Shown here: one piece after another, positions 5,298 to 60,048 of the stretch
Layout: every line of letters begins with the position of its first letter
How positions within the stretch are numbered: the first letter of the stretch is position 1
Source of the DNA: Escherichia coli
Lineage (GTDB): Bacteria; Pseudomonadota; Gammaproteobacteria; Enterobacterales; Enterobacteriaceae
Strand: one strand, 5' to 3'
Length of the DNA stretch: 64,000 bases
Assembly: GCF_002854065.1 (NCBI RefSeq)
Contig: NZ_CP024147.1
Made by a program: the position numbers and the translations under genes
The notes under the pieces: generated by a model
What the model saw: only the letters and a program-made list of their open reading frames with translations
The model's database searches: none
What the model was told of the DNA's origin: nothing

Positions 5298-7471
<2,174 letters not shown>

Positions 7472-49561: not shown

Positions 49562-50135
49562 CATGAAACAAATCCCCACATGCGCTGAAGCAAAAGCCCA
49601 CGCCAAATACCTTTCACGGTCGCTCAATATCAATCTAAGCTACGCCCGGGATGCAGTGGCATTACGTTATAACTACCATAACTGGTCGGAACTCAGCACA
49701 GTATTTGGTCAGCTTAGCTGATAAGTACATGTCGTGCTATGGCCTTGCCAGTCATGAAGAGAAGCGTGTTTTTAGCCAGCTTCTGGCACCATATATCGCA
49801 GAATTGCAAAATGTCATTCATCCTGACCGCCATGTACGGAAAGCTTGATACGTAAGATTGCTGAAGGCCATATTTCCCGGGTATCTGGTAAAGTGATGTC
49901 GGCTGTAATACGTGAATGCGAGGATTTTCCTCCCACGACAGTTAAAGACATCATTGAACTGCTTGAATTTTATGATGAAACGGCCAGCCGGATATTAGCA
50001 GGACACCACCGGCAGATCCCGACCAATAATCCCTTGCTGAAACCCTGGGTATTTGGTGTGCGCTTTTATGCCTATAACCACTTTAATGCCAAGCTGGTCA
50101 CCATCTGTGATCTTCCGCCAACATGCCTCTTCTGA
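49562..50135 (+). pseudogene. Gene of unknown function broken into three consecutive frames (53+65+96 aa)
   Basis: ORFs 49562..49723, 49651..49848, 49845..50135 succeed each other in frames 2, 1, 0 with short overlaps, suggesting two frameshifts in a ~190-codon gene. Confidence 0.3.
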
Positions 50136-50248
50136 ACTCTCCCGACGTCAACAAAACCCCCTCTAATCCCTTATATATCAGGATTTCTTTGTATCCAGAG
50201 GCCAACCGCCTTCACCCCGTATCAAGTTACTTTTGGGGGTATAATTTA

Positions 50249-50689
<441 letters not shown>

Positions 50690-50785
50690 CATGCATCACA
50701 ACAGCTCCTCATAGGCACTCAGTGGTCGATGTTCCACCTGACTGATCTGCTGCCAGAGCGGGGCGTGAGGTTCCGGTACTATCTG

Positions 50786-51082
50786 CTAGCCAGACGACAC
50801 TGAGCAGAGGCGATGTGAGGCCACCAGTTTCTCATTACTGTAGATCCGCAACTCATCGTTCAGCGATATTCGTATCGAGACTGGCTGACCACACAGCATT
50901 TCGGGAACGCTGTACTGATTACCTCCAACTTCGTTATAGCGGGTCCCAGGACACATGGCGGATGTCGAAGTAACTGGTATCGAAGTCTGTATCCGGTAAC
51001 GGCTGCAGATGTTCCTGCTCCAGCGCGAAGCGCTGTTCCGGCGTTTCTTTGAACTGACGAAGCTCCCATTTGTCAGCCACAT
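50786..51082 (-). pseudogene. Transposase C-terminal remnant (possibly IS21 IstA-like; family uncertain)
   Basis: 98-aa ORF ...YSVPEMLCGQPVSIRISLNDELRIYSNEKLVASHRL resembles transposase C-terminal domains; no N-terminal catalytic region. Confidence 0.35.
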
Positions 51083-51234
51083 CGGCTAGCGCCAGCTAAC
51101 CTATGCGGTACTGGCCTTGGTGCTAACCCGCGTTAAAGCTACCACGTTGATCAGAGCCTCTCTCCCGGAAAGTCATACTGTCTTACATATTAATCACTCA
51201 AAATAGAGTAAATAAAATCGGTAATGACTCCAAC

Positions 51235-51738
51235 TTATTGATAGTGTTTTATGTTCAGATAATGCCCGATGACTTTGTCATGCAGCTCCACCGATTTTGA
51301 GAACGACAGCGACTTCCGTCCCAGCCGTGCCAGGTGCTGCCTCAGATTCAGGTTATGCCGCTCAATTCGCTGCGTATATCGCTTGCTGATTACGTGCAGC
51401 TTTCCCTTCAGGCGGGATTCATACAGCGGCCAGCCATCCGTCATCCATATCACCACGTCAAAGGGTGACAGCAGGCTCATAAGACGCCCCAGCGTCGCCA
51501 TAGTGCGTTCACCGAATACGTGCGCAACAACCGTCTTCCGGAGACTGTCATACGCGTAAAACAGCCAGCGCTGGCGCGATTTAGCCCCGACATAGCCCCA
51601 CTGTTCGTCCATTTCCGCGCAGACGATGACGTCACTGCCCGGCTGTATGCGCGAGGTTACCGACTGCGGCCTGAGTTTTTTAAGTGACGTAAAATCGTGT
51701 TGAGGCCAACGCCCATAATGCGGGCAGTTGCCCGGCAT
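51235..51738 (-). CDS. insB: IS1 InsB transposase reading frame
   Basis: 167-aa [19 protein letters not shown]... (a few substitutions relative to copy 1). Confidence 0.9.
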
Positions 51739-51932
51739 CCAACGCCATTCATGGCCATATCAATGATTTTCTGGTGCGTACCGGGTTGAGAAGCGGTGTA
51801 AGTGAACTGCAGTTGCCATGTTTTACGGCAGTGAGAGCAGAGATAGCGCTGATGTCCGGCGGTGCTTTTGCCGTTACGCACCACCCCGTCAGTAGCTGAA
51901 CAGGAGGGACAGCTGATAGAAACAGAAGCCAC
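51657..51932 (-). CDS. insA: IS1 InsA
   Basis: 91-aa ORF; canonical TTAAAAAACTC frameshift window. Confidence 0.9.
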
Positions 51933-52145
51933 TGGAGCACCTCAAAAACACCATCATACACTAAATCAGTAAGTTGGCAGCATCACCAATAAAATCATAC
52001 AACTAGAGAGTGATTATAATTGTTATTGAACACTGGTTATCCCATTTTTGTTATATTGATCACAAAACCCTTCTTTTTATGATGATCTAAAAATAAATAT
52101 TAAATATTGTGGTCAGGCCGCTAGACCGCAATAAGAGGAAATATC

Positions 52146-53435
52146 ATGAAAAGAAAAACCATGGGGTGGATTATCGTTTTTCTTCTGTTTATAGTTTACA
52201 TGCTGAACTATATGGATCGTTCTGCATTATCGATTACGGCCCCACTTATCGAAAAAGAGTTAGGCTTTAATGCTGCTGAAATGGGGATAATTTTCAGCGC
52301 ATTTTTCGTTGGTTATGCTTTATTTAACTTCATTGGCGGTTGGGCCAGTGACAAAGTTGGACCCAAAACAGTATTTTTGGTTGCTGCACTGTTGTGGTCT
52401 GTTTTTTGTGGTATGACCGGTCTGGTCACCGGATTATGGACAATGCTTGCCGTACGTGTTTTATTTGGTATGGCAGAGGGCCCGGTTAGTGCAGCAGGAA
52501 ATAAAATTATTAATAACTGGATCTCGCGTAAAGAGTCGGCAACAGCTATCGGTATTTTTAGTGCTGGTTCACCACTTGGTGGCGCTATTTCTGGTCCGGT
52601 CGTTGGCTTGCTGGCAATATCACTTGGCTGGCGTCCGGCGTTTGGGATCATATTTATATTTGGCCTAGTTTGGGTATTACTGTGGTACTTCTTTGTCAGT
52701 GATAAACCGTCAAAAAGTAAACGTCTGGCAGCGGAAGAACGTGTCGATTTCGAAAACCATGACGATATTATTCTAGCCGAAGATGGTAAAGGTACACCTT
52801 CGCTTGGTTATTACATGAAGCAGCCGATGGTATGGGCGACCACGCTGGCATTTTTTAGCTATAACTATATTCTATTTTTCTTTCTTACTTGGTTTCCAAG
52901 CTATTTGAATCATTCATTACACATTGATATTAAAGAAATTAGTATTGCAACTGTTATCCCGTGGTTTATTGGGGCAATTGGCATGGTGTTAGGTGGCGTC
53001 TGCTCTGACTTTATTTATCGTATTACGGGAAATGCCTTACTTTCTCGCCGTTTAATTCTCGGCAGTTGCCTTGCGGGGGCCGCGGTTTGTGTCGCTGTTT
53101 CCGGAACTGTTACCTCTATTGGTAGTGCGATTACGCTGATGTCTGTTTCCTTATTCCTGCTTTATCTAACTGGACCTATTTATTGGGCTGTTATTCAGGA
53201 TGTAGTGCATAAAGATAAAGTAGGTAGCGTAGGCGGTGCGATGCACGGTCTGGCAAATATTTCCGGCATTATTGGTCCATTGGTAACCGGTTTTATTGTC
53301 CAGTTCAGTGGTAAATATGATTACGCATTCTATCTTGCAGGTGCCATAGCAATCATTTCAAGTCTGCTGGTATTCATTTTTGTTAAAAATAAAGGATTGA
53401 AAGTCAATGAAAGTCAAAGCTGTGTACATCAATAA
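52146..53435 (+). CDS. MFS transporter (anion:cation symporter-like; sugar-acid/hexuronate-type)
   Basis: 429-aa polytopic ORF with N-terminal motif LNYMDRSALSITAPLI and 12 predicted helices. Confidence 0.85.
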   Translation: MKRKTMGWIIVFLLFIVYMLNYMDRSALSITAPLIEKELGFNAAEMGIIFSAFFVGYALFNFIGGWASDKVGPKTVFLVAALLWSVFCGMTGLVTGLWTMLAVRVLFGMAEGPVSAAGNKIINNWISRKESATAIGIFSAGSPLGGAISGPVVGLLAISLGWRPAFGIIFIFGLVWVLLWYFFVSDKPSKSKRLAAEERVDFENHDDIILAEDGKGTPSLGYYMKQPMVWATTLAFFSYNYILFFFLTWFPSYLNHSLHIDIKEISIATVIPWFIGAIGMVLGGVCSDFIYRITGNALLSRRLILGSCLAGAAVCVAVSGTVTSIGSAITLMSVSLFLLYLTGPIYWAVIQDVVHKDKVGSVGGAMHGLANISGIIGPLVTGFIVQFSGKYDYAFYLAGAIAIISSLLVFIFVKNKGLKVNESQSCVHQ

Positions 53436-54432
53436 ACCTGGTGAAATTGCTACCCGTCTGGTCGATTATCCAGTAAGAAAAGATAATGAAGTTTTAATTA
53501 AAGTGGATGCAGCGGGAATTTGTGGTTCTGACATCGGTGCATTTCGTGGTACTAACCCACTGGTAACTTATCCGAGAATTATTGGACATGAAGTCACCGG
53601 GATTGTTCTGGAAACCGGTGAGGGGGTACCACAAAATATCAAACAGGGCGACCGGGTTATTGTAGATCCCTATGTTTATTGCGGTCACTGTTATCCATGT
53701 TCTGTAGGTAGAACTAATTGCTGCGAGAACTTAAAAGTCATCGGCGTACATATTGATGGCGCTATGCAAGAAGTGGTTTCGCATCCGGCTCACTTAATTC
53801 ACAAAATTCCTGACAATGTACCGTCAGAGATGGCGCCACTGGCTGAACCCTTAACTATTGCCCTACACGCATTACATCGAGCGCAATTGAAAGCAGGTGA
53901 ACATGTCGTCATTATTGGTGCAGGCGCTATTGGACTTATGGCGGCCCTGAGTTCGTTGAACTATAAAGCAACTCCCATTCTGGTTGATATTGTCGATGAA
54001 CGGTTGCAATACGCGAAATCGCTCGGCGTACCTTATGTAGTAAACTCCGCAAAAGCTAATGTTATTGAGGCAGTGAAAGATATTACACAAGGGACGATGG
54101 CTCAGGTTGTGGTGGAAGCCTCTGGTGCAAATAGCGCAATCAGAAGTACCCTGGATCTGGCCTCATTTGCAGGGCGTATAGCCTATACTGGTTGGCCAAA
54201 GCAGGAAACATCGTTACCAACTAATCTAATTACCTTTAAAGAACTAGATTTACGTGGTTCCCGTACCAGTGCCGGTGAATTTGAAGAAGCCCTGCAAATG
54301 TTATCAACGCTGAATATTAATCCGGCTGATATCGTGAGCAAAGTCGTGACAATAGATGAAGTTCCTGAGGCTGTAAAAGAGTTAGATCAATTTCCGGAAC
54401 GCTATCTGAAAATTAACGTGAAATTCATTTAA
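53407..54432 (+). CDS. Zinc-dependent medium-chain dehydrogenase (sorbitol/idonate dehydrogenase-like)
   Basis: 341-aa ORF with catalytic-zinc motif GHEVTG, structural-zinc Cys cluster CGHCYPCSVGRTNCC and NAD-binding GAGAIG; start overlaps the MFS stop by 29 nt. Confidence 0.85.
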   Translation: MKVKAVYINKPGEIATRLVDYPVRKDNEVLIKVDAAGICGSDIGAFRGTNPLVTYPRIIGHEVTGIVLETGEGVPQNIKQGDRVIVDPYVYCGHCYPCSVGRTNCCENLKVIGVHIDGAMQEVVSHPAHLIHKIPDNVPSEMAPLAEPLTIALHALHRAQLKAGEHVVIIGAGAIGLMAALSSLNYKATPILVDIVDERLQYAKSLGVPYVVNSAKANVIEAVKDITQGTMAQVVVEASGANSAIRSTLDLASFAGRIAYTGWPKQETSLPTNLITFKELDLRGSRTSAGEFEEALQMLSTLNINPADIVSKVVTIDEVPEAVKELDQFPERYLKINVKFI

Positions 54433-54458
54433 TTATAATTAACAAAAATAAAAAGTCT

Positions 54459-54488
54459 GACGCGTAGTGTATTCACTACGCGTTTTTT
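54459..54488 (+). terminator. Intrinsic terminator of the transporter-dehydrogenase operon
   Basis: ACGCGTAGTG-TATTC-ACTACGCG followed by TTTTTT, 27 bp after the dehydrogenase stop. Confidence 0.75.
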
Positions 54489-54975
54489 ATGTGCGCCGTG
54501 ACTGGCGCTGTTCTTCAACTGTGGTGGCTGAAGAACGACTAAGAGGTGAAAGTTCTCCAAACACCCGGTGAGGGGAAATGTTAGCGGAAGGCAAGGATGT
54601 TCATCGCGAGGTGAAATCTGAAGGAAGCCGGATGCAAAATGCTGGCCTGACGAACAGGAAGCGGCTAAGGCGGCACAAATCACCAAAGCCCAATACTCAC
54701 ACGGAACGCGGTGACGTACAGCCGACAGGCATAAGCAGGAAAGTCGTGCGAATTACCCCGGGAGATCTGCCGCTCTGCCAGTGTGCTACCGACGCCGTAG
54801 TAGCGCTGCAAAACCGGCAGCATGAAGGGCCGAACATAATTAACCGTGATTAGGACATCCGAACCCGATGATGATTAATGAAGCATAAACGCAGGCAACT
54901 GCGGCCAGCGGCAGAAGAGACGGACGGCATCCTGAGGTGTACTGGCAATAGCGGACACTACCATTTGTTCTTTTT

Positions 54976-55794
54976 TTAAGCAGCCATCTGATGATATTTT
55001 TCCCTGAAGGCTGCCGGGGAGATATTCCCCAGACGAGAGTGACGACGCTGACGATTGTAGAAAATCTCAATGTATTCCCGTATTACTGAGATGGCCTCAT
55101 CCCGGCTATTAAAACGATAGTGGCTCAGGCTCTCATTTTTCAGCGTTCCCCAGAAGCTTTCCATCGGAGCGTTGTCGTAACAGTTACCTTTACGCGACAT
55201 TGATGTTTTCAGACCAAACTGCTCCTGGATGACCCGGTAATCGTATGCGCAGTACTGTGAACCTCGATCGGAGTGGTGGATTAGCCCGGCAGGTGGGCGC
55301 TGGCTCCTGAGCGCCATAAACATTGCTTTACCTGTCAGCTCTTTTGTCATGCGCTCTCCCATGGCGTAGCCGACAATTTCGCACGTATAAACATCTTTGA
55401 TGCCAGCGAGGTACAACCATCCCTCCTGTGTGGCAACATACGTCAGGTCCGCCACCCAGACCTGATTTGGTACTGTAGGAGCGAACGTCTGGTTCAGCAG
55501 ATTTGGCGCAACTGGCAGATTGTGGCTCGAGTTCGTAGTCGCTCTGAACTTGCGTTTCTGCTTACAGCGTAGCCTTAGCTCCTTACGAAGACGTGCCAGT
55601 CGGTCACGACCAACGATGATGCCATTCTCTGCCAGCTCCGTCTGGAGCCGCCGGGTTCCATATGTTTCGCGAGTGCTGATATGTGCCACCTTAATCTCCA
55701 GTTTTAGCCGCTCATCACTTTGTTTTCTGTCTGAGGGGTCATGCTGTACCCAGTTGTAATAACCGCTCCTGGATACACCAAATACCTGACACAT
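54976..55794 (-). CDS. IS3-family OrfB DDE transposase (IS600-like)
   Basis: 272-aa ORF with DDE region ...WVADLTYV...HSDRGSQY...[12 protein letters not shown]... Confidence 0.85.
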
Positions 55795-55829
55795 CGCTTC
55801 AATGGGAAATTGTTGTCGCCATTGTTCGA

Positions 55830-56132
55830 TTAACGCGTATTTTTCAGCGACTCCTGTGCAAAATACGCTGTTGCTTTTTTTAATATATCTCGCTCAAGGC
55901 GAGCTTCATTTAACGCCTTACGCAGTTGCAGAATTTCAGATTCCAGTTCAGCCACCATGCGGGAACCAAGAGTACCGAGCCCTTTTCTGGCGGCGGTAAC
56001 CCATTGTCCTAAAGTGCCTTCAGGAAGAGATAATCGGGAAGCGCCTTCACTGATCGAAAGTTGATTTTCAAGAACCGTTCTGACAGCTTCGGCTTTGAAC
56101 TCTTTAGAGTAACGTTGGGTTTTTCTGCTCAT
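55830..56132 (-). CDS. IS3-family OrfA (IS600-like)
   Basis: 100-aa ORF MSRKTQRYSKEFKAEAVRTVLENQLSISEGASRL... Confidence 0.85.
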   Translation of the reverse strand: MSRKTQRYSKEFKAEAVRTVLENQLSISEGASRLSLPEGTLGQWVTAARKGLGTLGSRMVAELESEILQLRKALNEARLERDILKKATAYFAQESLKNTR

Positions 56133-56196
56133 TATTAGCTCCTTCTGATGCCATTCTATTTCAGGAAGGAGTGTCCGTTAAACTCAGGCTACCTCA

Positions 56197-56849
56197 TCCG
56201 TCAGAGCTGCATGATGGCGGCGTGAGAACCTTAGGCATCCCGACAGTGGTGGATAGGCCTATCCAGCAGGCTATAGCTATAGCGCAACATTTAAGCGCCA
56301 TCGTGGACAAAAGCTTCTCAGACTCTAGGCACGGTTTCCGGCTGGGACGCAACGTATGGCAGGCAGTGCAATAGGCACAGCATTATATACGGGGCAGCAA
56401 ACGGTGGGTGGTGGATATAAATCTGGAGAAGTTCTTCGACCGTGTGGATCACAGACTCCTGATGACGCGTCTGGCCAGTACGATAAAGGACAGGCGGGTG
56501 CTGAGGCTGATACGCCGCTACTTGAAAGAGGAAATAGTCCGGGACGGGCAAAGAGAGAAATGGCAGGAAGGCATGCCGCAGGGCGGCCATTGCTGCATGG
56601 TATCAGGACGTCGTAGAGAACAAACTGAAGCAGAAAGTGAATGAGAAGAAGAGCGCGGTGGCGCGCCCGTGGGAGCAGAAGTTCCTCGGGTACAGTATGA
56701 CATGGCACAAACAGTTGAAGCTGAAAATAGCCCTGACGAGTGTGAACAGGCTGAAGGAGAAAGTGCGCAGTCTGACCACGGGAAACCGGAGCAAATCAGT
56801 GAAAGCGACAATCAATGCCCTGACGCCAGTGCTGCGTGAACCTGTTTAA
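56197..56849 (+). pseudogene. Group II intron reverse transcriptase/maturase, frameshifted and internally deleted
   Basis: RT motifs spread over three frames (56171..56374, 56408..56644, 56637..56849); the YADD-containing segment between MPQGG and domain X is absent. Confidence 0.7.
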
Positions 56850-56991
56850 GATTCTGTGTAAATGCCTTTTCTCAGAAGTGACCGTCCTGGCGGTCACCGA
56901 ACTCGATAATAAAGCGGCTGAACCTGTACATAGATTTGTGTAATCGCCTGATTTTGATATGTTCAATCCAGCATCATATGAAGGTTAATTT

Positions 56992-57659
56992 ATGGATGAA
57001 AAACAGTTACAGGCTCTGGCTAACGAACTGGCCAAAAACCTCAAAACCTCTGAAGACCTCAGTCAGTTTGATCGGCTGCTGAAAAAGCTCAGCGTTGAAG
57101 CCGCTCTCAATGCTGAGATGACACACCATCTTGGGTATGAGAAAAATCAGCCCAGACTAGGAGCTAACTCCCGCAACGGTTATTCCACAAAGACCGTTAT
57201 CACAGGCGACGGTCCACTGGAACTGCGTACTCCGCGCGATCGTGACGGTACCTTCGAACCACAACTGGTAAAGAAAAATCAGACCCGTATTACCGGGATG
57301 GATAACCAGATCCTCTCGTTGTATGCCAAAGGGATGACCACTCGTGAGATAGCTGCTGCGTTCAAAGAACTGTATGACGCAGATGTTTCACCGGCGCTGA
57401 CAGCCGAAGCTGGCAGGCTAACTGGCCGAATCTTGCCACGTTCTTCGCTTATCCAACGGACATCCGCAAAGTGATCTATACGACGAATGCCATCGAGTCG
57501 CTAAACAGCGTGATCCGCCATGCGATCAAAAAGCGTAAAGTGTTCCCGACAGACGACTCGGTGAAAAAAGTGGTGTGGCTGGCAATCCAGTCTGCGTCCC
57601 AGAAATGGACGATTCCGTTGAAGGACTGGCGAATGGCAACGAGCCGCTTGGAACTGTAA
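56992..57659 (+). pseudogene. IS256-family transposase remnant (N- and C-terminal parts, catalytic core deleted)
   Basis: N-part ...HHLGYEKNQPRLGANSRNGYSTKTVITGDGPLELRTPRDRDGTFEPQLV...QILSLYAKGMTTREI and C-part IYTTNAIESLNSVIR...WTIPLKDW match the ends of IS256-type transposases; together only ~220 aa. Confidence 0.7.
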
Positions 57660-57958
57660 ATATCACATAGTTTTTGCGCCAAAATACCGAAGACAGGTGT
57701 TCTACAGAGAGAAGCGTAGAGCAATAGGCTGTATTTTGAGGAAGCTGTGTGAGTGGAAAAGTGTACAGATTCTGGAAGCTGAATACTGTGCAAATCCCGC
57801 CCCAAATGAGCGCATACGGAAGTGTTCTGCGCTGGTTTTGCCGTACTCCTTCATGGGCCGGTTATTCATATCCGTCAGTAAATCCCAAAAACGTACATTC
57901 AACGTAAGCATCCGGTGAACTCGCATGGCGCGATCACCGGCGTTATGGCAGGGCGTAT

Positions 57959-59635
57959 TCAGTCCGCCGGATGGCGGTAAGGCAGCAGTTCATCCAGCCG
58001 GGACGCCGTCCATGACGGCAGCTTCTCCAGCACATCTCGCAGCCAGACTACTGGCTCCAGACCGTTCAGCCTCGCCGTGTGCAGCAGCGTCAGCAGCTCC
58101 GCCAGCCGCTCTCCTCCCCGCAGCGAACCCGCGAACAGCCATGACTTCCGCCCCTGCGCCACCGGACGCATCATCTACTCACTCCGGTTGTTGTCCAGCG
58201 GTACCCGTCCGTCATTCAGGTATGTTTCCAGCGCCGGCCAACGCTTCAGGGCATACGTCACCGCACCGTGCAGCCTGCCACCCGGCGCGCTCGTCTTTTC
58301 CGTCGCCCTCAGCCAGCTGTGGAACGCCTCCATCTGCGGCTTCGCGTACCGCCGTCGCCATCGCCATTTCTGCTCTGCCGGACGCTGCCGGATGGTCTGC
58401 TCCAGGATATACAGCGCCCGTATCTGTTTCAGCGCCTCCTTCGCCCCCGGACTGCCGTTCATTCTGTACAGCTCCATGAACTTTCTGCGCACGTGCGCCA
58501 TGCACCCCGCCTCACAGATACCCGGTGCCGCCGGAGGGGCCCCTTCCTGCCCGTCACGGAACAGCGCCCGGTAACCGGCATAACCGTCAGCCACCAGAGT
58601 CCCCGACCACCCGCTCAGCATCTCACACGCATACTGCCCCGCACGCCCCGGACGGCAGTCGTACACCACGATGTCCCGGGCACTGCCCGCCGCACTCACG
58701 TATGCTCACAGGTACCCTTTCCGGACTTTCCCTTTCCGCGTATCCAGTATCTGCAGCGGCGTCTCGTCCGCCTGCAGCACCGGTTGCCTGAGCAGGTCAC
58801 GTTTCAGGGCTGCCGCCAGCGGCGACAGCACCGCCGCCGTCGGCCCGAACCAGTCCGTCAGCGTGCTTTCCGGCAACTGTACCCCTTCACGGGCGTATAT
58901 CTTCTGCTGCCGCTGCAGTGACAGGTGATCCAGCACCTTCGCGGTCACCACCTGCGCCAGCAGACCCGGACCCGGCTGCCCTTTGTCGATGACTGCCGGC
59001 GGCAGCACGGCACTGTGCACCGTGTCGCAGCACGGGCAACTGTACTGCGGTCTCACGGTCCGTTTCACCACGAAGTGTGCCGGTACATACTCCAGCACCT
59101 CATTCACCTCGTCGCGGATATGTCGCATTTCACTTCCGCAGTCCGGACAGGTGCTACCGGTCTCAGGCATGAGTACGGTTTCCTGTCGCGGCAGGTGTGC
59201 CGGCAGGGGGTGACGGGCCGGCTTCTTCCCGGTTTTCTCCTTCACCGGCAGCAGGTCGCTCAGTTGCCGGGTGATATCAGCCTCATCGCTGGCCGCGTCC
59301 TCATCTGCCAGTGGTTTCTGGCTGGCCGGGAGGCGCTCGCTTTTACGCCCGAAGCGCCACTGGTGGGCCAGCTTCAGGGCCTCCTCCAGCTCCCGGATGC
59401 GCTGTTCATATGCGGTTTTTTCTGCCTGCATGGCGGCATTAAGGTCATGGATACGCTGTTCCAGCGTGGTGGTGACGGTATTCAGGTTATGGAGGCGCTG
59501 TTCCAGCGTGGTGTTGACGGTATTCAGGTTATGAAGGCGCTGCTCATATTCGCATGCCTGTGCCGTCAGCAGCGCTGTTGCCAGACGGCGCAGTTCATCG
59601 GGGTTTTGTGTGGTGTTCAGGATGTCATCTGTCAT
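57959..59635 (-). pseudogene. IS66-family TnpC transposase split into three ORFs by frameshifts
   Basis: ORFs 58706..59635 (N-terminal coiled-coil and zinc-finger CPDCG...CPCC), 58175..58699 and 57959..58174 together cover a TnpC-like protein in different frames. Confidence 0.75.
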
Positions 59636-59709
59636 GCAGCCATGATGACAGAGGCGGGCGGGAACATCCTGATAAGAAGCTGCCCGTATTATGATTCTGG
59701 CACAGGAGG

Positions 59710-60048
59710 TTATTCAGTCCACCTCTGCAGGGGGCTGGCAGAGAGACGCAGCCAGTCAACGCCGGCGGTAAGCCAGGCGAACTGTTCCGCCGTGAGCGAC
59801 CAGGTGGTGTCGCCGTCGCGGGGCCAGCGGAAGGCGCCCTGGTGCAGGCGGCGGGTGCAGAGCCAGACGCCGTGGCGGTCCCACATCAGGAGTTTCATGC
59901 GGGTGCGTTTTTTCCCGGTGAAGAGGAAGGCTTCGCCTTCCCGGGGCGGATGCCCGGCGGCCTGAGTGGCGAGTCGCGTCAGGGAGTCGATGCCGGCGCG
60001 TATGTCAGCAGGCTCGCGGACGAGCCAGAGGGAATGAGGGCTCAGCAC
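59710..60048 (-). CDS. IS66-family Orf2 (TnpB)
   Basis: 112-aa ORF MLSPHSLWLVREPADIRAGIDSL...RMKLLMWDRHGVWLCTRRL... typical IS66 Orf2. Confidence 0.8.
   Translation of the reverse strand: MLSPHSLWLVREPADIRAGIDSLTRLATQAAGHPPREGEAFLFTGKKRTRMKLLMWDRHGVWLCTRRLHQGAFRWPRDGDTTWSLTAEQFAWLTAGVDWLRLSASPLQRWTE

Follow-up and report, generated by a model that had tools for sequence, protein, structure and literature searches.

A decayed group II intron fragment downstream of a dehydrogenase terminator in Escherichia coli, in all likelihood a fossil copy of the class C intron E.c.I6

The experimentally studied group II introns of class C (IIC) include GsI-IIC from Geobacillus stearothermophilus and B.h.I1 from Bacillus halodurans. 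Two RNA features are hallmarks of the class, namely an 11-nt bulge in which AGGAA is conserved, located within the epsilon-prime region of domain I, and a domain V in which a CGC triad replaces AGC and the distal stem is 2 bp shorter (Toor et al. 2006, PMC1702495). Further traits are an intron-encoded RT/maturase that lacks an HNH endonuclease domain, an IBS1-EBS1 pairing restricted to 3-4 bp with neither EBS2 nor IBS2, and a sense-oriented position shortly past an intrinsic terminator or a comparable stem-loop. The class is represented in E. coli by E.c.I6, which is located between grpO and grpP in strain CFT073 (NC_004431, 4320108-4321914; Leclercq and Cordaux 2012, PMC3522654, Tables S2/S3). 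Most group II introns of Enterobacteria have been described as singletons that are inactivated and reside in mobile islands (PMC3522654). The stretch of 64,000 nucleotides of an E. coli contig that was analysed here, hereafter the window, contains a non-functional fragment of a group II intron, which is almost certainly a fossil copy of E.c.I6.

The fragment follows a gene for a zinc-binding alcohol dehydrogenase (53407-54432, plus strand), identified from its open reading frame and from the RefSeq annotation of an identical locus. This gene represents the 5' exon side, with the intron in sense orientation relative to it, and its terminator is the target of the intron. The bidirectional intrinsic terminator (54459-54490, plus strand), called on both strands by a terminator scan, consists of a hairpin with a perfect 10-bp stem (54460-54469 paired with 54474-54483) and the loop TATT, followed on its 3' side by a T-run (54483-54488) and AT. 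The initial annotation had noted a GTGCGCC intron start two nucleotides after the T-run, and it is indeed read at position 54491, preceded by AT. The intron's 5' terminus is thereby placed 7 nt past the terminator stem, and the last four exon bases, TTAT (54487-54490), are located at the IBS1 position. The 40 nt upstream of the insertion point have a minimum free energy of -17.6 kcal/mol, compared with a background of -5.3 +/- 2.7 kcal/mol. The stretch 54200-54932 is present in 152 of 5,426 complete E. coli genomes (at least 99% identity and at least 80% coverage), and the decayed state is common to about 150 of them.

The decay was mapped by alignment to an intact copy of 1.92 kb (L001) and by tblastn against an intact relative. 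The 5' segment of the intron (54491-54932, plus strand) contains the GTGCGCC end, damaged domains I-III, the beginning of domain IV and the first 22 codons of the ORF. A permissive E-value was used for the Rfam scan, which covered positions 50000-64000. The core of domain I (54600-54751, plus strand) gave a full-length match to RF02001 (group-II-D1D4-3) that scored 89.3 bits, well above the gathering score of 32, at an E-value of 2.9e-17. The covariance search that the initial annotation had proposed for domain I and any residual domains V and VI was thus successful for domain I, but the window lacks domains V and VI; neither they nor any further intron pieces were detected outside 54493-56838 by the Rfam scan of 50000-64000 or by blastn of an intact intron against all 64 kb. 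The IIC-specific 11-nt bulge with AGGAA, ATCTGAAGGAA, is retained at 54616-54626, where it aligns to 11 unpaired positions of RF02001.

Compared to the intact copies, the 5' part of the RNA has four deletions of 19, 4, 18 and 40 nt. The 19-nt deletion is located directly past GTGCGCC and is bounded by GCGCCG repeats. Through the 18-nt deletion, which is bounded by GGCACA repeats, the EBS1 hairpin has lost its 5' strand, so that only the loop remnant ACAA (54675-54678) is left and the hairpin can no longer fold. The 40-nt deletion affects the domain II/III region, and the RF01998 match seen in the intact copies is gone in the window. A complete group II ribozyme has six domains, with a GUGYG 5' end, a domain V and a domain VI with a bulged A, and the intact relatives possess all of these. 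The window copy retains its GUGCG 5' end and, in damaged form, domains I to IV, the last represented by its 5' part.

The intron ORF starts at 54868 and is interrupted by a TAA stop at codon 7 (54886-54888), and tblastn against the intact relative places residues 1-22 of the reverse transcriptase (RT) at 54868-54933. The second RT fragment (56200-56588, plus strand), recognised by alignment, tblastn and a Pfam RVT_1 match (E 6e-15 on the fragments), covers residues ~113-236 and contains the motifs GIPTV, HGFRLGR, DINLEKFFDRVDH and MPQGG (56200-56587). It begins with a few codons from the 5' part of the ORF, followed by the junction of an in-frame deletion of 261 nt at ~56212/56213, which shows the microhomology GATGGCG and has removed residues ~23-112. 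In the same fragment, 6 nt are duplicated and the frame is interrupted by a TAG stop at 56372-56374. Roughly 130 nt that include RT block 5 (YADD) are missing, and there is a frameshift at ~56588/56589. The third fragment (56589-56838, plus strand; alignment, tblastn and Pfam), which is in another frame, covers residues ~285-363, in which the RT domain ends and domain X/GIIM is represented by its first ~32 residues. Homology to the intron ends at 56838, corresponding to residue 363 of 462, so that the window retains a partial RVT_1 and only the first third of GIIM. The intron copy also carries ~7% substitutions.

All of the RT motifs that were initially read from the sequence, GIPTV, HGFRLGR, DINLEKFFDRVDH, MPQGG and domain X, were recovered in the window fragments by tblastn, and the missing YADD segment was, according to tblastn and the alignment, deleted together with its surroundings. 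The proposal that the RT is frameshifted at least twice held for one frameshift of the intron only. The other frame change is accounted for by an inserted IS600 element and its target duplication; IS600 and one TCC sum to 1267 bp, one more than a multiple of three, and the first apparent change of frame is therefore due to the insertion sequence and is not an intron frameshift. The two in-frame stop codons, the four small deletions in the 5' part of the RNA and the in-frame state of the 261-nt deletion were absent from the initial annotation.

The IS600 element (54933-56196, minus strand) belongs to the IS3 family and is intact at 1264 bp, as indicated by a full-length match to annotated IS600 copies at 99.1% identity and by the NCBIfam model transpos_IS3, with orfA at 55830-56132 and orfB at 54976-55794. 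Its target was codon ~22 of the intron ORF, and the TCC duplication is found at 54930-54932 and 56197-56199. An IS3-family element with this duplication inside the intron had been predicted; the element is IS600 itself, but it starts at 54933 rather than at 54943. Downstream, the suggestion that the 3' domains of the intron were replaced by an IS256-family remnant agrees with a remnant of IS1414 at 56839-57659 (plus strand), supported by IS1414 matches, the NCBIfam model transpos_IS256 and the RefSeq label "transposase, frameshifted", and with the lack of domains V and VI in the window. Homology to IS1414 begins where the intron homology ends, and matches annotated as IS1414 from many unrelated contexts all begin at 56835-56841. 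Of the 338 profile positions of its transposase, only 1-97 and 296-336 remain. The intron is ~7% diverged and deletion-ridden, whereas IS600 is undamaged, shows 99.1% identity to other copies and has kept its duplication, so that the IS600 insertion was probably the later event. Remains of IS elements crowd the region 54491-62186.

To place the fragment among its relatives, we compared the window copy, from which IS600 was removed in silico, with ten copies fetched from independent loci. Related sequence is present in ~1,245 E. coli genomes, and an intact ltrA gene is annotated in several of the copies. The window copy is 91.6-93.8% identical in nucleotide sequence to the other copies, except for the degraded fragment L007 (87.8%), and the other copies are 90.5-99.6% identical among themselves (at least 94.4% when L007 is left out). 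One of the relatives lies between grpO and grpP in strain CFT073, and the boundaries derived here (5' GTGCGCC, 3' ...CTACTCGAT) give exactly the 1807 bp published for E.c.I6. The fragment E.c.I6-tr1 of strain SMS-3-5 (PMC3522654) corresponds to locus L007/L009. The copy at the dehydrogenase locus is not among the E.c.I6 copies of the survey of 90 genomes in that study; judged by its sequence identity, it would be named as another E.c.I6 fragment under the 90% rule used there. The alignment to E. coli group II introns with the insertion sequence removed, which had been suggested as a check, thus matches the window copy to the E.c.I6 family.

The assignment to class C rests on RT similarity scores, on the RNA hallmarks and on the published class of E.c.I6. 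The 462-residue protein of an intact relative contains the Pfam domains RVT_1 (110-316) and GIIM (332-410), reaches 408 bits with TIGR04416, the cut-off of which is 300, and lacks any HNH endonuclease domain in Pfam. Its RT is 51% identical to that of GsI-IIC in a gapless alignment over 410 residues (466 bits), and the IIC maturases of E. rectale and R. intestinalis follow with 359, 288 and 284 bits, compared to 150 bits for LtrA, 114 for T.el4h and ~25 for retron RTs. The ranking is the same for the RT fragments in the window, which give 180 bits to GsI-IIC, 120, 115 and 113 bits to the maturases of E. rectale and R. intestinalis, 73 bits to LtrA and 40 bits to T.el4h, and which matched no retron RT at an E-value of 1e-3 among RTs of solved structure. 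The fragments are thus best matched by IIC RTs and not by retron RTs, in line with their initial reading as intron-encoded. Domain V of the intact copies, CCGCCGUAUGCGGAGCCGCAUGUACGGUGG, is 30 nt long with CGC at positions 2-4, a shortened distal stem and a 2-nt bulge, and the bulged A of domain VI precedes the 3' splice site by seven nucleotides. The exon is recognised in these copies by a 4-nt EBS1 within an 8-nt terminal loop, GCAUACAU or GCACAAAU, which pairs with the last four exon bases.

A hairpin is located directly before the insertion, 4-14 nt away, in all 11 independent copies, and the 40 nt upstream of the insertion exceed at least 93% of nearby windows in stability in each of them, and at least 99% in nine. 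Targeting of terminator hairpins had been put forward as characteristic of class C, and a position behind a stable hairpin is what the eleven copies show. Canonical Rho-independent terminators with T-runs are found at no fewer than six of the sites (the window, L002, L008, L012, L015 and L016). E.c.I6 is inserted after grpO, L012 after a TerD-family gene, the one downstream of terD, L016 after a P2-like prophage gene, L015 after hdaA and L002 downstream of bcsB on a plasmid; L014 is located on plasmid pEC5654, and L001, L006, L007 and L013 make up the remaining hairpin sites. EBS1 and IBS1 co-vary among copies with an intact or near-intact ORF, with AUAC paired to GUAU in L001, L006, L012, L013 and L016, and ACAA paired to UUGU in L002, so that the last three to four exon bases are paired. 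The pairing is imperfect in the fossil copies, i.e. the window copy, L007 and L008. In the window, the EBS1 remnant ACAA forms three of four pairs with UUAU, as expected from decay, and a perfect original pairing can therefore not be shown.

The RT fragments might alternatively derive from a retron, a defence-associated or another non-intron RT, with the GTGCG start being coincidental. The closest RT domains, 5hhj and 5hhl, are labelled "Retron-type reverse transcriptase" by their PDB depositors, and retron and Drt models gave weak sub-threshold matches. However, we take 5hhj and 5hhl to be RT domains of group IIC maturases despite these labels, and the retron models in NCBIfam reach only 46-85 bits against cut-offs of 235-450, with Drt also far below its threshold, while TIGR04416 is above its cut-off. 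The GIIM maturase domain, which is not expected in a retron, is also present, and no retron RNA family, as would be expected from an adjacent msr/msd, was detected by Rfam in 50000-64000. With the 89-bit match to group II domain I, the domains V and VI of the intact relatives and the TIGR04416 score, a retron or other RT identity was rejected, and its probability is negligible. It could also be argued that the intron belongs to class D, E or F, or to an attC-targeting IIC sub-lineage, rather than to the terminator-targeting class C introns, as the En domain is missing from classes D, E and F as well and the comparison to solved structures had no member of these classes. Against this alternative stand the 51% full-length identity to the GsI-IIC RT, the CGC triad and 30-nt domain V of the family, the 11-nt bulge with AGGAA, and the publication of E.c.I6 as class C (PMC3522654). 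The short IBS1 pairing of 3-4 bp and the hairpin at the IBS2 position in 11 of 11 sites also speak against it, and at least six of the hairpins are canonical Rho-independent terminators and not attC sites. This alternative is accordingly extremely improbable.

A terminator-targeting class C intron would be expected to have entered the locus by insertion, but its 5' end could instead have been brought to the terminator by an IS-mediated rearrangement. An intron-free allele of the MFS-transporter/dehydrogenase gene pair, present in ~28 E. coli records at 91.8% identity, has the same hairpin and T-run (L010), followed by AGCGCAG... and a convergent gene for a GntR-type regulator. Since this allele has the same terminator, the terminator is part of the dehydrogenase locus and the intron was inserted into it. 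The allele is 8% diverged from the window locus; an identical but empty target site was not found, only this 91.8%-identical allele. The GntR-type regulator module is located at 62186..60894 in the window, inverted and 7.7 kb from the terminator, and it adjoins an IS4 end and ~30 nt of sequence unrelated to it, but no intron sequence, so that the 3' junction was lost to a later rearrangement. With the 3' exon junction gone, the insertion is defined from one side only. When 5,426 complete E. coli genomes were searched with a query from which the IS had been removed in silico, no intact or IS-free intron was found at the dehydrogenase locus, and the junction was covered contiguously in no record. 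The displaced and inverted module, the missing 3' junction and the IS fragments at 54491-62186 could all be taken to favour a rearrangement. Yet the junction is exact, with the full GTGCGCC following hairpin, T-run and TTAT in the same geometry as in the ten other copies, and neither an exact intron terminus nor an IBS1-like tetranucleotide is expected to be preserved in a rearrangement, which makes this explanation very unlikely. The reading of the locus as the fossil of a class C intron insertion at a terminator hairpin held at each step that was tested.

The history of such an insertion can be outlined from published work on IIC mobility (PMC1702495, PMC4424553). An active ribonucleoprotein of intron RNA and an endonuclease-less RT/maturase would have recognised the DNA hairpin of the dehydrogenase terminator, with the short EBS1 loop pairing with the last 3-4 exon bases (..TTAT) and an EBS3/IBS3 pairing also guiding the insertion. 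The intron may then have reverse-spliced into the DNA 7 nt past the terminator stem, and, since the protein has no endonuclease, cDNA synthesis would have been primed from the host replication fork. Behind a terminator and between convergent genes, the insertion was presumably harmless and therefore tolerated. The copy decayed by substitutions, small deletions between short direct repeats, the deletion in the ORF, stop codons and the loss of YADD. IS600 probably inserted later with its TCC duplication, and everything 3' of residue 363, including the catalytic domains V and VI, was removed by an IS1414 copy or an associated deletion. The window copy is no longer capable of splicing, mobility or protein production, and nothing points to a current function.

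The 5' end shortened by 19 nt, in which a small hairpin between two GCGCCG repeats is missing, is found in the window copy and E.c.I6, and also in the otherwise unrelated near-intact copies L013 and L015 with slightly different junctions. The short variant might be made repeatedly by the mobility process itself rather than by random decay, although we consider this rather unlikely. Candidate routes would be template-switching of the RT across the 5' hairpin, or the use of a cryptic internal 5' site with a stem-loop and an IBS1-like sequence, as used by B.h.I1 in vitro.

The window element belongs to an already catalogued intron family and behaves as is known for this family. The RT pieces, which RefSeq calls "hypothetical protein", can be re-annotated as pseudogene fragments of the group IIC intron E.c.I6, with little import beyond annotation. 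The locus nevertheless provides a clean example of a class C intron that was placed behind a terminator, tolerated, decayed and overrun by IS elements, and this history fits the view of inactivated singletons in PMC3522654. The copies compared here also show that intact members of the E.c.I6 family with matched EBS1 and IBS1 occur on E. coli plasmids and chromosomes.

The closest described system is E.c.I6 itself, in the grp propanediol island of CFT073, which is 92% identical to the window copy over shared columns. The two have the same short 5' end, GTGCGCC-GTGACTGG, and both follow a Rho-independent terminator ending in TTAT. The ORF of E.c.I6 is also disrupted (PMC3522654). However, the window copy is located elsewhere, after a Zn alcohol-dehydrogenase gene, and is more degraded, being split by IS600, deprived of YADD and truncated without domains V and VI. 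The intact introns of the family, such as L012 in strain M19, L014 on pEC5654 and L002 on pF1267-1, are 91.6-93.8% identical to the window copy, which shares with them the RNA domains, where retained, and the targeting of hairpins. In contrast to the window copy, they are 1.88-1.92 kb long, contain an ORF for an RT/maturase of 448-462 amino acids with YADD, and keep the EBS1 hairpin as well as domains V and VI. GsI-IIC and B.h.I1 are found in another host phylum, and the similarity to GsI-IIC is seen at the protein level, where its RT is 51% identical to that of the E.c.I6 family. Unlike these two introns, the window copy is a non-functional fragment.

The EBS1 loop, a four-nucleotide intron loop that pairs with the last three to four exon bases and lies about 200 nucleotides into each intron, was compared with the four nucleotides preceding the intron in six copies of the E.c.I6 family: the chromosomal copy of strain MEI3O-23 (L001), the copy on plasmid pF1267-1 (L002), and four copies from other, independent loci (L006, L012, L013, and L016). 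The loop occurs in two versions, AUAC and ACAA. Where the open reading frame is intact or only slightly disrupted, the AUAC copies are preceded by GUAU; L002, the copy with ACAA, is preceded by UUGU. These matches between the EBS1 versions and the preceding exon bases suggest recent mobility with an altered short target.

The intron on pF1267-1 is located in a disrupted bcs cellulose operon. An IS200 5' hairpin / STnc490 RNA (L002:4136-4259, 121 bits) lies about 9 nucleotides past its 3' end, and the intron is therefore positioned immediately upstream of an IS200 remnant. The reverse transcriptase of the copy in MEI3O-23 contains YADG in place of YADD (L001:4727-4738, residues 264-267) and is otherwise intact, while YADD is present in all four other intact copies checked. 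The seemingly intact ltrA of this copy is probably catalytically dead. The same chromosome contains, about 1.9 kb downstream of the intron, a second and unrelated match to a group II intron domain I model (RF02012, group-II-D1D4-7; L001:7259-7400, 60 bits).

Four copies share a short 5' variant that lacks the 19 nucleotides forming a small hairpin between two GCGCCG repeats: the window copy (54491-54510), E.c.I6 itself (L008:1109), L013 (~1513), and L015 (~1494). Because these copies are scattered in the identity matrix rather than forming a common cluster, and because their junctions differ slightly (GTGCGCC, GTACGCC, and GTGCGCGCC), the deletion seems to recur within the family.

Downstream of the IS1414 remnant that truncates the window copy, the RefSeq annotation of the identical locus reveals more mobile-element debris (57660-60330): part of another transposase (~57667-57792), an IS66-family element that is frameshifted and carries tnpC, tnpB, and tnpA on the minus strand (~57959-60329), and a piece of an IS21 element. 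The model of the Hfq-binding sRNA isrC (RF01387) is matched over its full length farther downstream on the plus strand (62703-62825; 150 bits, E = 3e-37). In the intron-free allele of the dehydrogenase locus (L010), a GntR-type regulator and a fragment of a GGDEF gene come immediately after the terminator of the dehydrogenase (5372-6668), whereas in the window this module is inverted and placed 7.7 kb downstream (60894-62186 and 62187-62640). It adjoins about 30 nucleotides of unrelated sequence, followed by the left end of an IS4 with the transposase N-terminus. Compared with the intron-free allele, the inverted and displaced module beside the IS4 end points to an IS-mediated rearrangement of the island.
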